Source: a virus (Duplodnaviria > Caudoviricetes). Taken from it: 64,000 bases of DNA. Positions within the stretch are counted from its first letter, which is position 1, and every line of letters starts with the position of its first letter. Under the pieces are notes generated by a model that saw only the letters and a program-made list of their open reading frames with translations, had not been told where the DNA came from and did not search any database. The DNA lies in the IMG/VR virus record IMGVR_UViG_3300046522_000316, positions 96,001 through 160,000 of that record. One strand, 5' to 3'. Positions 11,736 through 42,636 of the stretch are shown in pieces. Both the position numbers and the translations under genes were made by a program.

Positions 11736-11756
11736 CGCGAAACTGTAAATCAGAAT

Positions 11757-11787
11757 GGAAGGGCTACCCTGTGGCCCTTCCTTTTTT
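11757..11787 (+). terminator. Rho-independent terminator
   Basis: GGAAGGGCTAC-cct-GTGGCCCTTCC then T6. Confidence 0.8.
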
Positions 11788-11801
11788 CATTTCTGGAGCC
11801 T

Positions 11802-38723: not shown

Positions 38724-39362
38724 ATGCCAATCCTAGCCGATGCACTGGTTGAGCCAATCAAAGAAGACGAAGGCCGTTATTTGCAGATGATTGCAGACGG
38801 CGACCTTGAAGAGTCCGAGCCATTTGGTTTTATGGGAATCGGATACAAACTTTACGTGGGCACTGATCGTTACGTTCCGGGCCTGTCGAACTGTCGGTTG
38901 GTCGTCCTGTTCAAAGGCGAAGATTGTGTTTATTCCTGCTATTTCAAAATGGCGGAAAACCAATACTTCGGAAATCGCGTGGTGCAGGTTGAGGTTCGGC
39001 AGTCTCCATCGTTGCCGGGCCTTGCGCGTTCCATGATGCGCAATTATTTCCTGCGTTTTTATGATTCGATTCGCACGGATCTTTCAAGCACACCGCAAGG
39101 CCGCAATATGTGGCAGCAGTTCTACACGGATTATCGGAAAGCCGGTGACGTGTATTTTTATCAAGGGTTGGTAAATATCGACCTGCGCAAATCGGACGGG
39201 TCGAATAATCAAGATGCATCCTGTCCAGAGGTGGTAACTCACTTGCGCGCCATGCGCAACGCCTGCACCGTACTGCGTGAAGGGATGTGGCACGACAATA
39301 AAGAGGGTAACGTTATTGTTATCTACGCATCCAACAAACCTCTATGGACAAAAGATCAATGA
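38724..39362 (+). CDS. Hypothetical protein, possibly GNAT-like fold
   Basis: VQVEVRQ...GLARSMM...STPQGRNMW. Confidence 0.5.
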   Translation: MPILADALVEPIKEDEGRYLQMIADGDLEESEPFGFMGIGYKLYVGTDRYVPGLSNCRLVVLFKGEDCVYSCYFKMAENQYFGNRVVQVEVRQSPSLPGLARSMMRNYFLRFYDSIRTDLSSTPQGRNMWQQFYTDYRKAGDVYFYQGLVNIDLRKSDGSNNQDASCPEVVTHLRAMRNACTVLREGMWHDNKEGNVIVIYASNKPLWTKDQ

Positions 39363-41299
39363 AACTACGAAAAACGAACCGGGTTCCAATCGGTCAAGCG
39401 CCAGCTAATCGCGCCCCGCAAGCGATGGGTACTGCAAAGCAGTATTACCCGAAAACCAATCAGCAAAAGATTGACGATTATCTGGCAACGGCAGGCAGCG
39501 GCGGCAACGCGCAAATGTCTCAGATGCCGATTGAAATCGACATTGATCCGATGCTGAAAGATATCGTGTTTTCCGAAGACCTTGAACAGAAAAAACTGGT
39601 CATGCGGATTTACACGGACATGTATTACAACGATTCCATCGGCGGTTCCATTGTCGATATCAAATCGCAGCTGATGTTCTCCGACTTCACCATTTCCGGA
39701 ATCATGGATCGCCGGGTGATGGATGATTTCATGGAAAACGTTGATCGTCTGGATATCCGCAACCTGATGCCCGACGTGGCAATCGACTACAACGTAAAAG
39801 GCGGTTTCATCGGATCGCTTTTGTACAACGAAAAATCGCAAGTGTTCTCGCGGATCATGCCGCACGCGTATGAAAACACAAAGATCGACATGCTGCCTTT
39901 CCACGGCACCGATCCGCTGATCACTGTAGCGTTTCCCGAATACATCCGGGCGACCATGGCTTCCGATAGTCCGCGTGTAAAAGCACTGCGTGAATTCCTC
40001 GGCGCCGACGTGATGAAACAGCTTTCGAACGAAGCGTTAGAACTCGACCAGAAATCCACCGTTTACGTTCCGCGCCGTTCCGGTTCCAGTTCAACGGGCA
40101 CCAGTTATTACCGTCGAATCATGCCGTGGTATTTGCTGGAGAAAAACCTTTTCCGTGGCACGTTGGTACGAAGTGCAATGCGTCAAAAGGGTATTCTGCA
40201 CGTAACGCTCGACGGCGCTGGCGAATGGGAACCAACACTGGCCGACATGCAGGCCGTGATGGATATGTTCATGAACGCCGATGCTGACCCGGTAGGCGCC
40301 GTGGTTGCAACGCGTGGCGGTATTTCCACTGAGGAAATTCGTGACCCACAAGGCGGTTGGACAATCTTCGATAACAAAGATGCAATCGACTCGATTAAAA
40401 TGAAAGCACTCGGTATTTCCGATGCATTCCTTTCGGGTGACGCGACTTATGCGAACGGCGATACTTCGACCTCTTTCTTTATCGACGCAATTCGTACCGA
40501 ACGTGATTGGCTGACCCGCAAGACTTTGTACAGCCGCATTTTCCCGATGATTTCCGCGTTGAAAGGCTACACGCTGAACCGCGACGGGAAATTGATTACT
40601 CGCGGTAACAGCCTCGACAAACTCGATCCAATGGGCAGTTTCGAACGACTCAACGACGGCACCCGTTTGTTGATTCCGACGATCCATTGGGAAAAGACTT
40701 TGCAGCCTGAAGGCGATCAGCAATACATGGATATGCTGCAAGCCATGTCGGATAAAGGCGTACCGGTTCCACTGCGCGTTATGGCGGCAGCTGGTGGCCT
40801 GAACCTTGACCGTTTGTTGGCCGGTCAGGATTCCGATTTGTTGGCGCAAGAATCGCTTTATCAATACCAAAAGAAAATCAAAGATTTGAAAAAGAAATAC
40901 GGTATTGATGACGCTGGCGATATGGGCGGCGGTGGCATGGGCGGTGGCGGTTTCGCTTCTACTGCATCCAGCTACGATCAGCAATTGATGCACATGGCCC
41001 GCACTAATCCCGGTTTGTTCGAAGCATTCCGCGCACAGGCACAATCCATTTATAACCAGAACCTCGACAATACGCATTCCGATGTATTGGCCCGCAACAA
41101 TGGTCAAATCGTTGGTTTGGCGAATCGCGAATTCGGTGAAATGGGCGATGCTTACGGCTATTCGCATGACGGCAAAAAGAAACATTTGACCAATCAAAAG
41201 TTGGCGAAAGAACGTCAGAACGAAAAGATCGTTAAATTCCTTCGGGATCGTGATGCTCGTACCGGCGTCGGTGCAAAGCGTTCGCGCACTCGTTTGTAA
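39359..41299 (+). CDS. Portal protein
   Basis: Follows terminase; KALGISDAFLSGDATYAN...FF...R..L pattern typical of portals. Confidence 0.65.
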   Translation: MKLRKTNRVPIGQAPANRAPQAMGTAKQYYPKTNQQKIDDYLATAGSGGNAQMSQMPIEIDIDPMLKDIVFSEDLEQKKLVMRIYTDMYYNDSIGGSIVDIKSQLMFSDFTISGIMDRRVMDDFMENVDRLDIRNLMPDVAIDYNVKGGFIGSLLYNEKSQVFSRIMPHAYENTKIDMLPFHGTDPLITVAFPEYIRATMASDSPRVKALREFLGADVMKQLSNEALELDQKSTVYVPRRSGSSSTGTSYYRRIMPWYLLEKNLFRGTLVRSAMRQKGILHVTLDGAGEWEPTLADMQAVMDMFMNADADPVGAVVATRGGISTEEIRDPQGGWTIFDNKDAIDSIKMKALGISDAFLSGDATYANGDTSTSFFIDAIRTERDWLTRKTLYSRIFPMISALKGYTLNRDGKLITRGNSLDKLDPMGSFERLNDGTRLLIPTIHWEKTLQPEGDQQYMDMLQAMSDKGVPVPLRVMAAAGGLNLDRLLAGQDSDLLAQESLYQYQKKIKDLKKKYGIDDAGDMGGGGMGGGGFASTASSYDQQLMHMARTNPGLFEAFRAQAQSIYNQNLDNTHSDVLARNNGQIVGLANREFGEMGDAYGYSHDGKKKHLTNQKLAKERQNEKIVKFLRDRDARTGVGAKRSRTRL

Positions 41300-41317: not shown

Positions 41318-41329
41318 AAACTGTAAATA
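41318..41329 (+). promoter_or_regulatory. AAACTGTAAATA candidate phage promoter (this copy precedes the candidate RNA)
   Basis: Exact copies start at 5298, 6683, 13390, 13741, 14406, 15408, 22927, 23778, 29309, 41318; ...AAATC variants at 11740, 15445; all on +. Confidence 0.7.
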
Positions 41330-41333
41330 ATGT

Positions 41334-41542
41334 ACAAGGAGTTGAGAAACGTTCGACACTAGCCAGACCAAAGGGTTGGGGATCGGGTAACGACGCTACG
41401 GGCTTAGCTGGCCATTACATGATAGTCGTTGCCCACTTGACCGATAATGATATGTGGAACGTTCTCTCAATTTCTCCTTTGTTCAGGCAAAGGTGGTACA
41501 ACCCAACCGCGCCCTGTGAGCAATTGCACGGCGCGGTTTTTT
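41334..41542 (+). ncRNA. Candidate structured small RNA
   Basis: Long-range stem 41334-41354 with 41457-41482, inner stem 41385-41394 with 41425-41434; bounded by promoter motif and terminator. Confidence 0.5.
41505..41542 (+). terminator. Rho-independent terminator
   Basis: AACCGCGCC / GGCGCGGTT stem then T-tract. Confidence 0.75.
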
Positions 41543-41560
41543 CGTTTCTGGAGCCGAAAT

Positions 41561-41860
41561 ATGTGGGACGAATTAACACACGAAGAACAACTGAATTTTC
41601 TGATTGAATTGTGCGGAACATCTAGCGGATATCCGACGATTGATCACGAACTGGTTTTCCTGTGCGAAGCGGTATTGAATACCAAACAGCGCCGGGAATA
41701 CGTGGATCACATGAGCGGCACAATTGCCGATCACACCTATCGCCGGATTGATCCTGAACACCCGGACGCCGCGACTCAGTATTACTTCAACATGATGCAC
41801 GCTGCTGTTGAATTGCGTGCGAAAATGATTTGGTGTGCTGCAACAGGGAACGAACCGTAA
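41561..41860 (+). CDS. Hypothetical protein
   Basis: GGAG RBS then ATG 41561. Confidence 0.7.
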   Translation: MWDELTHEEQLNFLIELCGTSSGYPTIDHELVFLCEAVLNTKQRREYVDHMSGTIADHTYRRIDPEHPDAATQYYFNMMHAAVELRAKMIWCAATGNEP

Positions 41861-42636
41861 TGGCTGGTTCACCGATTAACTCGACAAAGCATTTGCAACG
41901 TCAGGGCCTCGATTCGAAAATCATTCACGCGGGCGTTGTGGTGGATAACCTCGACCCGCGAAAGAATTGCCGTGTGCGTGTGCGTATTCCCGGTATTTTC
42001 CCTGACACAATCCCCGACAATCATTTGCCGTGGGCATTGCCAATGAATCAGGACTACACGACCGACGACGATAAGCCGACGCGTTCCGGATTCCAGAACG
42101 TTCCTCCAGTCGGTGCAAAGGTTGGTGTGCGCTTCCCTAAAGGCGATCCACACAAGCCGGAATTAGCGCCGTATCCCGGTGATAAAAAGACGATTTCTTC
42201 GATTGCAAATACCAACTATCCGTTCCGCATGGTTATGGAATTGGAGAACGGTTGCGCAATCGTGGCCGACAAGAAAACGAACGAAGTATTCGTCACCAAT
42301 CCGGGCGATGCGCACTTTGTTTTCCTCGGTGATTACAGCAAAACAATCGTTGGTTCCTGCACCGAAATCATCACTGGATCGAAAGGCGATGTGCCCGGTT
42401 ATTTGACCAATGCCAGCAATACCAAAATCAGCGAGATTCAAGAAAAGTCGGCTGGTGGTGTGAGCAAAGGCAAAGGCAATAAATTCGAAAAGATCACCGG
42501 CAATTACACGCTGGAAATCGGTGGCAATCGCACGGTGAAAGTGAACGGCAATGACCAATTAACTGTTGGCCGTAACCGTGATGAAAAAGTCGGCGGCAAC
42601 CACAAAATTCAATCCTCCCGTTCTGATACGAACTGA
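41860..42636 (+). CDS. Baseplate hub/spike protein (T4 gp5 / VgrG-like)
   Basis: GVVVDNLDP...RVRVRIPG...LPWA OB-fold; C-terminal VxGNxTxxVxGN beta-helix repeats. Confidence 0.9.
   Translation: MAGSPINSTKHLQRQGLDSKIIHAGVVVDNLDPRKNCRVRVRIPGIFPDTIPDNHLPWALPMNQDYTTDDDKPTRSGFQNVPPVGAKVGVRFPKGDPHKPELAPYPGDKKTISSIANTNYPFRMVMELENGCAIVADKKTNEVFVTNPGDAHFVFLGDYSKTIVGSCTEIITGSKGDVPGYLTNASNTKISEIQEKSAGGVSKGKGNKFEKITGNYTLEIGGNRTVKVNGNDQLTVGRNRDEKVGGNHKIQSSRSDTN

Follow-up and report, generated by a model that had tools for sequence, protein, structure and literature searches.

Enterobacterial small RNAs derived from 3' untranslated regions (3'-UTRs) arise by two routes, with or without a promoter of their own; the packaging RNAs (pRNAs) of phi29 relatives keep their structure while their sequences diverge; and phage lambda offers a parallel layout in its pR'-tR' leader. 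A minimal 6S-1 RNA made of a central bubble and two helical arms is functional in vitro (PMC8876501), and PeSLs bracket optional modules in T4-type phages (PMC2839356, PMC4122927). These are the closest described systems to the element reported here, which lies in a stretch of 64,000 nucleotides (nt) from a Lu11-like jumbo Pseudomonas phage (positions 96,001 to 160,000 of IMG/VR record IMGVR_UViG_3300046522_000316; here called the window). A structured RNA unit fills the 261-nt spacer between the portal gene and an open reading frame (ORF) of 99 amino acids. It is a folded RNA of about 205 bases with its own phage promoter and terminator, set in the interval between the portal and baseplate genes, and with its counterparts it forms a real and previously undescribed RNA family of the Lu11-like jumbo phages. 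In the literature we found no account of Lu11 or HRDY3 transcription, nor of this RNA. We read the element as a stand-alone, accessory late noncoding RNA (ncRNA) that binds protein, and we put the probability of this reading at roughly one-half.

Relatives were retrieved by their portal sequences and as contigs encoding the 99-amino-acid protein, which gave 17 distinct versions of the element from Lu11-like jumbo phages. Eleven versions are close to the window (L005, L006, L055, L057, and L059 to L064); the further versions are those of HRDY3 and L012, of L013, L016, and L018, and of Lu11. The order of parts is common to all: the promoter motif, a long closing stem, an interior, a CCUUUG/CAAAGG hairpin, and a terminator. 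In the 11 close variants, 99.1% of the 638 pair cells hold standard pairs, and 11 pairs (33 cells) are altered on both sides; compensatory changes in related phages, which the initial annotation had named in advance as a check, are thus present. None of 500 shuffles matched the observed pairing, double-change, or covariation values, and in a control in which partners were slid by one to three columns, 37 to 47% of cells were paired. Compensatory pairs of their own were found in subfamilies D/E (seven) and F/G/H (eight).

The same data indicate which strand is under selection. On the plus strand, positions 41300-41545 fold at -86.1 kcal/mol (z, -4.63), a value that none of 200 shuffles equaled, while the minus strand reaches a z of -2.25; the predicted transcript, 41335-41542, has a z of -5.18. 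In subfamilies A/B/C there are 26 G-U cells versus 4 A-C cells. The large excess of G-U over A-C, together with the weaker fold of the minus strand, shows that the selected structure is a plus-strand RNA and not a DNA cruciform. No credible ORF is present at 41318-41542, in agreement with what was first noted: the stretch holds short frames of 62 to 68 amino acids and a 5' extension of the next gene through the terminator, and coding is rejected because the relatives vary in length by 1 to 4 nt (indels that are not multiples of three). With a promoter motif, a terminator, no ORF, and strand-specific covariation, the description of the locus as a self-contained structured RNA gene is well supported. 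A comparison with Rfam using Infernal, also suggested at the outset, matched no family: the whole window gave none at the gathering score, the locus at E ≤ 10 gave palindromic hits of the terminator to a microRNA model only, and ten relatives' loci gave no match at E ≤ 5. ARAGORN detected no tRNA or tmRNA. A Y RNA or YrlA was considered and dropped, as four relatives' genomes held no TROVE match above the cut-off.

The unit opens with the 12-mer AAACTGTAAATA, found where the initial annotation had placed it. This motif occurs in the window as 10 exact and 3 one-mismatch copies, on the plus strand only, and matches with up to two mismatches number 15, against 4.9 ± 2.0 expected. It is one base away from the T4 late promoter, TATAAATA, and is 100% identical across the 11 close relatives; the Lu11 record carries a "putative middle/late promoter" at the equivalent post-portal site. 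By analogy with T4 late promoters, the RNA would start at about 41334-41336. The closing stem begins within a few nucleotides of this presumed start in most variants and 10 to 17 nt after it in L013, L016, and L018.

At the other end, a strong hairpin with arms CCGCGCC/GGCGCGG and a U6 run stop at 41542, so the terminator said to close the unit is indeed there; its sequence is unique within the window. The 36-nt terminator hairpin is 100% identical where the flanking genes are only 60 to 85% identical at the DNA level, and the same hairpin is found in L001, L005, L006, L012, L013, L016, and L018. It is still 100% identical in HRDY3 and L012, where the neighboring gene is about 62% identical. 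Judged by sequence, this conservation is far beyond what a generic terminator would need, and it may reflect specific binding of a protein or a second role for the hairpin. Pattern scans of IMG/VR and metagenomes for the terminator added no variant.

The RNA is a variable rod followed by a nearly invariant 3' tail (Table 1). The rod, of about 146 nt, comprises the closing stem P1, an internal bubble of 16 and 11 nt, the helices P2 and P3, and a fast-changing apical part; in the tail, the hairpin P4 and a linker precede the terminator hairpin and U-tail. In the 11 sequences, P1 has 18 scored pairs, of which 5 show compensatory double changes, with 98.5% of cells paired, and one of its positions varies as A-U, C-G, and U-A. 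In the other subfamilies the P1 sequences are unrelated, yet a helix of 16 to 20 bp is always kept. P2 has 6 pairs with 100% of cells paired, and its columns 59 and 123 covary (U-A in four sequences, C-G in seven). P3 has 10 pairs, half of them with compensatory double changes, and 97.3% of cells are paired. The 5' bubble motif AGCCA(R)(C)AC crosses subfamilies, recurring in HRDY3, L012, L013, L016, and L018. The apical part is wholly replaced in other subfamilies, and in L055 the stem of its small hairpin is kept (U-G to U-A) with the loop swapped out. P4 is unique within the window and is found in every element-bearing variant, its stem CCUUUG/CAAAGG being kept even in Lu11; its changes are one-sided only and so give no covariation proof. 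A further helix, P0, comes from minimum-free-energy (MFE) and alifold predictions and is tentative: it is invariant, so covariation cannot test it, and because it lies at or before the presumed start, it may form only in read-through portal transcripts.

Several helices had been drawn by the initial annotation from the window sequence. Its long stem stands insofar as 41334-41354 is complementary to 41457-41482; its outermost register, ACAAGG/CCTTGT, competes with the conserved P4, and the register conserved in the 11 sequences is that listed for P1. The inner stem GGGTAACGAC/GTCGTTGCCC is present and corresponds to P3. The alternative pairing ATCGG/CCGAT is not kept, since column 126 is G only in the window and A or C in the others, and P2 takes its place. 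Nor does GCCAG/CTGGC survive, its pairing being broken without compensation in L006, L055, and L057. Two candidates of our own were likewise discarded: a T-loop-like GUUCGACAC at the top of P1, which is not kept in other variants, and a hairpin within the 5' bubble (CUAGCC/GGUUGG), which the 11-sequence alignment contradicts.

Table 1. Features of the post-portal RNA locus and its neighbors in the window; identity is the mean pairwise value in the 11 close variants
Feature	Position	Strand	Identity (%)	Remarks
Portal protein gene	39344-41299	+		PHROG 16240, E 5e-261; upstream neighbor
Promoter motif AAACTGTAAATA	41318-41329	+	100	Phage middle/late promoter motif; repeated 12-mer
P0 5' strand, GUAC	41332-41335	+		Tentative; pairs with 41496-41499
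P1 5' strand	41338-41357	+	80 (P1)	Closing stem, ~20 bp; pairs with 41454-41474
Bubble 5' strand ACUAGCCAGACCAAAG	41358-41373	+	87	
P2 5' strand	41374-41380	+	86 (P2)	Pairs with 41436-41442
P3 5' strand	41385-41394	+	71 (P3)	Pairs with 41425-41434
Apical region	41395-41424	+	59	Fast-evolving; small hairpin 41401-41413, GGCU-UAGCU-GGCC
P3 and P2 3' strands	41425-41442	+		P3, 41425-41434; P2, 41436-41442; covariation
Bubble 3' strand GAUAAUGAUAU	41443-41453	+	81	Core N-A-U-A-[A/C/G]-U-G-A, -10-like
P1 3' strand	41454-41474	+		Pairs with 41338-41357
P4 hairpin	41476-41493	+	90	CCUUUGU-UCAG-GCAAAGG
Linker UGGUACAACCC	41494-41504	+	100	Holds P0 3' strand
Intrinsic terminator	41505-41542	+	99	Stem 41505-41519/41524-41538; U-run 41537-41542
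Ribosome-binding site (RBS), GGAG	41550-41553	+		Ahead of 99-amino-acid ORF
99-amino-acid ORF	41561-41860	+		Conserved; downstream neighbor
gp5/VgrG-like hub gene	41830-42636	+		After 99-amino-acid ORF
Synonymous sites of flanking genes			76-85	Baseline

Set against the synonymous sites of the flanking genes, the apical part falls below the baseline, and the adjoining 66 bp are 99 to 100% conserved. The profile of identities in Table 1 describes a rod that is constrained in structure and free in sequence, with a hypervariable tip and a frozen 3' tail. Kept helices, a fast-evolving tip, a frozen tail, and gain and loss among relatives suggest a role in conflict or regulation rather than in housekeeping.

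A covariance model built from three sequences (R1) found HRDY3 and L012 at an E value of about 1e-9, and a second model of 13 sequences with refined structure (R2) found L018 at an E value of 4.5e-5. L013 and L016 gave partial matches to R2 (E values, 1.2 to 1.5) and are linked through their alignment and shared fold with L018, while for Lu11 (E value, 0.85) the link rests on synteny and the identical submotifs GGCUUAGCUGGCC and AUACUGA. The window holds no second copy beyond the element at 41318, and two complete relatives have one significant match each; a second match in HRDY3 (E value, 0.23) lies inside a coding sequence and was rejected. The element is always located 3' of the portal gene, its onset being 19 to 40 nt past the portal stop codon in most variants and 64 to 95 nt past it in L013-L016 and L018. 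The window portal shares 86% amino acid identity with that of HRDY3, which is annotated as a portal, 76% with that of Lu11, and 52% with that of PaBG, and an identical copy of the spacer locus occurs in one IMG/VR contig and one JGI contig. The 99-amino-acid protein is kept in all relatives, whether element bearing or element free.

The element is cleanly missing in L008-L011, where the promoter motif and the first bases of P1 are followed directly by the terminator and where the promoter, terminator, RBS, and downstream gene are retained. It is missing together with the whole spacer in L019/L022, and NCTB, Yoloswag, and JA29, which belong to the group but are less closely related, lack a post-portal spacer. 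Some of the element-free close relatives have portals that are 87 to 88% identical, and absence from such close relatives makes the element accessory. It is a module that belongs to the Lu11 branch and perhaps to PaBG as well, and its simplest history is an ancestral origin followed by two losses; the element-free relatives are not accounted for by simple deletion between direct repeats. In PaBG (L003, 3340-3510), a 123-nt fold with a terminator (z, -6.4) stands directly after the portal gene, starting 9 nt past the stop codon. It has the same topology, with an outer helix, a perfect 16-bp P1, two inner hairpins, and a small hairpin, and a promoter motif occurs only after its terminator.

Two further post-portal spacers were noted. 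In an IMG/VR contig whose portal is 67% identical (L020, 4274-4442), the spacer opens with ACAAGGA, like the window stem, and continues with different hairpins and a different terminator, without a late-promoter motif, and could represent a version that has diverged further or been replaced. Alcaligenes phage Afa-NA1, a much smaller relative of 78 kb, has an unannotated gap of about 600 nt 3' of its portal gene (L046, 3346-3943).

Public sequencing runs from rhizosphere, soil, wastewater, and peat contain the locus and additional variants of it. No RNA run was listed as containing the 1.3-kb stretch; the 261-nt stretch appeared in part in one peat run recorded as RNA, as a small share, and in wastewater runs labeled "RNA-Seq cDNA" whose kind is uncertain. 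In run X27, a peat metatranscriptome, a 12.9-kb contig has 88 other bases in place of 41387-41477, and natural diversity of the element exceeds the 17 versions retrieved. A contig variant among runs X27 (peat) and X18 (wastewater) shows 42 differences along 238 nt. Two pieces of 239 nt, identical at their ends, resemble a between-strain bubble in the assembly graph rather than transcripts and were set aside.

The late-promoter motif recurs elsewhere in the window in arrangements of its own. At 11740-11800, a terminator-like hairpin and its U-run lie about 5 nt past the motif copy AAACTGTAAATC, and the RBS TCTGGAGC comes next; this cassette of promoter, hairpin, and RBS has the same layout as the portal locus of the element-free L008-L011. 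Between 13390 and 15456, six to seven copies of the motif lie inside 2 kb, two of which (15408 and 15445) are only 37 nt apart with a small hairpin between them. Additional small RNAs or very short genes may be encoded in this region.

In the reading that we favor, host core RNA polymerase (RNAP) carrying a phage-encoded sigma factor would initiate a few bases past the late motif, at about 41335, and transcription would end at the intrinsic terminator, with a product of about 205 nt; read-through portal transcripts would likewise carry this sequence at their 3' end. Phages of the Lu11-like group code for one or more sigma70-family factors of their own (PMC7412058). The RNA would act in trans by binding protein, its helices fixing the geometry of the bubble for recognition, and we infer that function resides in the terminated RNA and that this RNA has a protein partner. 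Because element-free relatives keep the promoter, the terminator, and the downstream genes, the element would not be needed in cis. The order in PaBG, with the fold before the terminator and the promoter after it, fits the 3' end of portal transcripts and not a leader. Several observations weigh on the other side. More than 22 kb of plus-strand genes follow the motif at 41318, which is its last copy ahead of them; transcripts that start there may therefore have to pass the terminator, in which case the element would be a leader. Identity in the bubble (81 to 87%) is not clearly above that of synonymous sites (76 to 85%), the strongest constraint falls on the 3' tail and not on the bubble, and the PaBG fold, at an E value of 2.4 with R2, is no more than a putative homolog. 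Public runs gave contigs only and no transcript ends. The 6S covariance model has no match at the locus or in 10 relatives' loci, the -10-like motif of the bubble is absent or shifted in HRDY3 and L012, and a TATAAT-like string could arise by chance in an A/U-rich loop.

These last points bear most directly on a minority idea, already raised by the initial annotation, that the RNA is a 6S-like decoy of RNAP, which is the most specific candidate for a trans-acting mechanism. By analogy with 6S RNA, it would mimic an open promoter and trap the sigma70 holoenzyme late in infection: P1 would stand in for downstream promoter DNA and P2/P3 for upstream promoter DNA, a -10-like N-A-U-A-N-U would be displayed by the 3' strand of the bubble right where the upstream helix ends, and with the host holoenzyme trapped, transcription would be left to the phage sigma factor. 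The architecture of closing stem, conserved bubble, and terminal stem is there, an arrangement that is enough for 6S-1 RNA to work in vitro (PMC8876501), and so is the -10-like hexamer. A consensus scan flagged GATAAT in the 3' bubble; A127, T128, A129, T131, and G132 are invariant in the 11 sequences, and of the interior columns in a 9-variant alignment few do not vary, A127, A129, T131, and A133 being some of them. The bubble core starts at the edge of P2 and fits the -10 consensus at its two key positions, A-11 and T-7, and by analogy with the open complex the 3' bubble strand has the geometry of the nontemplate strand. A likeness of the 3' bubble motif to the late-promoter motif (AUACUG-AAA versus AAACUGUAAAUA) was judged too weak and was not used. 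A search with RF00013 at E ≤ 10 gave no match in four relatives' genomes, and control genomes scored. With shifts of the motif, a likeness that chance could produce, no 6S match, and bubble conservation close to that of synonymous sites, the decoy is not established, and we consider it doubtful.

A leader acting in cis on the downstream late operon (the 99-amino-acid gene, the hub, and the fibers), tuning passage through the terminator, would account for the order of promoter, 170-nt fold, strong terminator, and RBS with the ATG of the 99-amino-acid ORF 18 nt past the terminator; it could serve as an attenuator or insulator, or could confer terminator resistance on polymerase in the manner of a put/EAR-like RNA. 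Taken with these variants, it is the main rival, less likely than the favored reading but one to be taken seriously. An RBS a few bases past a terminator means that some read-through must occur. From 41330 to 64000, all genes are on the plus strand and no further plus-strand copy of the late motif is found, more terminator-like sites follow downstream (43443 and about 57740), and the cassette of promoter, hairpin, and RBS recurs at 11740. The element sits between promoter motif and terminator, as processive antitermination RNAs do, and in HK022 the nascent phage transcript putRNA is able to suppress termination by itself (PMC9378689). What speaks against a leader is that L008-L011 share the promoter, the terminator stem, and the downstream genes without the element, so read-through would not require it. 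Moreover, no segment is complementary to the 5' arm of the terminator and no antiterminator hairpin is visible, the interior is swapped between subfamilies, unlike ligand- or polymerase-binding cores, EAR and other Rfam leader families have no match, and in PaBG the fold lies upstream of the terminator with the promoter after it. A terminator-type riboswitch was rejected on similar grounds: the interior is replaced between subfamilies, with only short junction motifs in common, and no upstream segment competes for the terminator arm. The PaBG arrangement, in which no promoter motif stands in front of the fold, would suit a 3'-UTR structure of the portal mRNA, a processing site of RNase III type or a stabilizer that sets the ratio of portal to downstream message, the released RNA then being functionless. 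The proximity of the element to the portal stop in most variants, the near-perfect P1 duplex of 16 to 21 bp, long enough for RNase III, and a terminator that follows in every case agree with this. A simple hairpin would suffice for such a function, however, and P2, P3, P4, and the junction motifs are also under selection; a dedicated, 100% conserved promoter motif lies between the stop codon and the fold, and close relatives manage without the element. We therefore rate this explanation as improbable.

Two further explanations fare worse still. That it might be a phi29-type packaging RNA docking on the portal during DNA packaging, as the initial annotation had offered alongside the decoy, is prompted by the adjoining portal gene, the late promoter, and a secondary structure that is kept while the sequence diverges freely. 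Packaging cannot depend on an RNA that is missing from relatives with portals 87 to 88% identical and from distant members. The phage is a terminase-type myovirus, in whose relatives a large-terminase gene is annotated two genes ahead of the portal, the Rfam pRNA model has no match, and no mutually complementary loop pair is conserved, the apical loop being replaced in L055. The dispensability of the element and the lack of interlocking loops make a packaging RNA very unlikely. A DNA-level element (an origin, a pac site, or a cruciform) or a selfish, MITE-like inverted-repeat insertion would explain a long inverted repeat, its clean presence or absence among close relatives, and the conservation of the adjoining 66 bp. 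Against this, the arms vary yet stay complementary, where ends bound by a transposase would hold their sequence, G-U pairs are far more frequent than A-C, the minus strand folds worse, and the window and two complete relatives hold a single copy each; we give it hardly any weight.

Jumbo phages have been annotated mostly by their proteins, and very few of their ncRNAs have comparative support. The element described here adds a covariation-backed ncRNA family of jumbo phages with 17 variants in three to four subfamilies and no Rfam entry. Should the decoy prove true, this would be the first 6S-like RNAP regulator from a virulent phage, with literal -10 mimicry, and would place an RNA layer in the takeover of host transcription by phages with their own sigma factors; were it a leader, it would be a phage element for transcription control of a new kind. 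Lu11 and HRDY3 are in culture and allow immediate testing.

Among described RNAs, 6S RNA (RF00013; Escherichia coli SsrS and Bacillus subtilis 6S-1) resembles the element in its size class (a rod of about 146 nt within an RNA of about 205 nt), in the succession of closing stem, central bubble, and terminal stem (here P2 and P3, 16 bp, with P1, P2, and P3 covarying), in a sequence that drifts while the shape stays, and in a 3' bubble strand that runs from the terminal to the closing stem, as the nontemplate strand would. In contrast to 6S RNA, the element is phage encoded, accessory, and late, has an extra invariant 3' tail, and carries a literal -10-like hexamer, which 6S RNAs are not generally known to have. 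With the pRNA of phi29 it shares a phage origin, the priority of structure over sequence, a helix joining the 5' and 3' ends, and a thematic link to the portal; unlike that pRNA, it is not essential, has no interlocking loops, comes from another type of phage, and has no Rfam match. The small RNAs of enterobacterial 3'-UTRs are similar in having a terminator in common with the upstream mRNA, and the internal promoter in Lu11-like phages and its lack in PaBG correspond to their two known routes; the element differs in being much larger, almost fully folded, and without an evident single-stranded seed.

The lambda pR'-"6S"-tR' region and HK022 putRNA have the same sequence of phage promoter, leader of about 200 nt, strong terminator, and structural genes, and HK022 putRNA demonstrates that a nascent structured RNA can act on its own polymerase (PMC9378689). 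The put RNA consists of two short stem-loops of about 70 nt, versus a 146-nt rod with a tail here, no Q-type protein is known here, and the relatives of the window phage would read the same terminator without the element. The PeSL cassettes of T4-type phages are comparable in their flanks, which consist of a promoter, a terminator stem-loop, and an RBS (PMC2839356, PMC4122927), and in the optional nature of the insert, whose insert-free form is seen at 11740 and in L008-L011. PeSLs, however, flank protein-coding ORFans and are present as many repeats of conserved sequence, whereas at the portal locus the cargo is an ncRNA and only the 12-nt promoter motif is repeated, the terminator and P4 being unique in the window.

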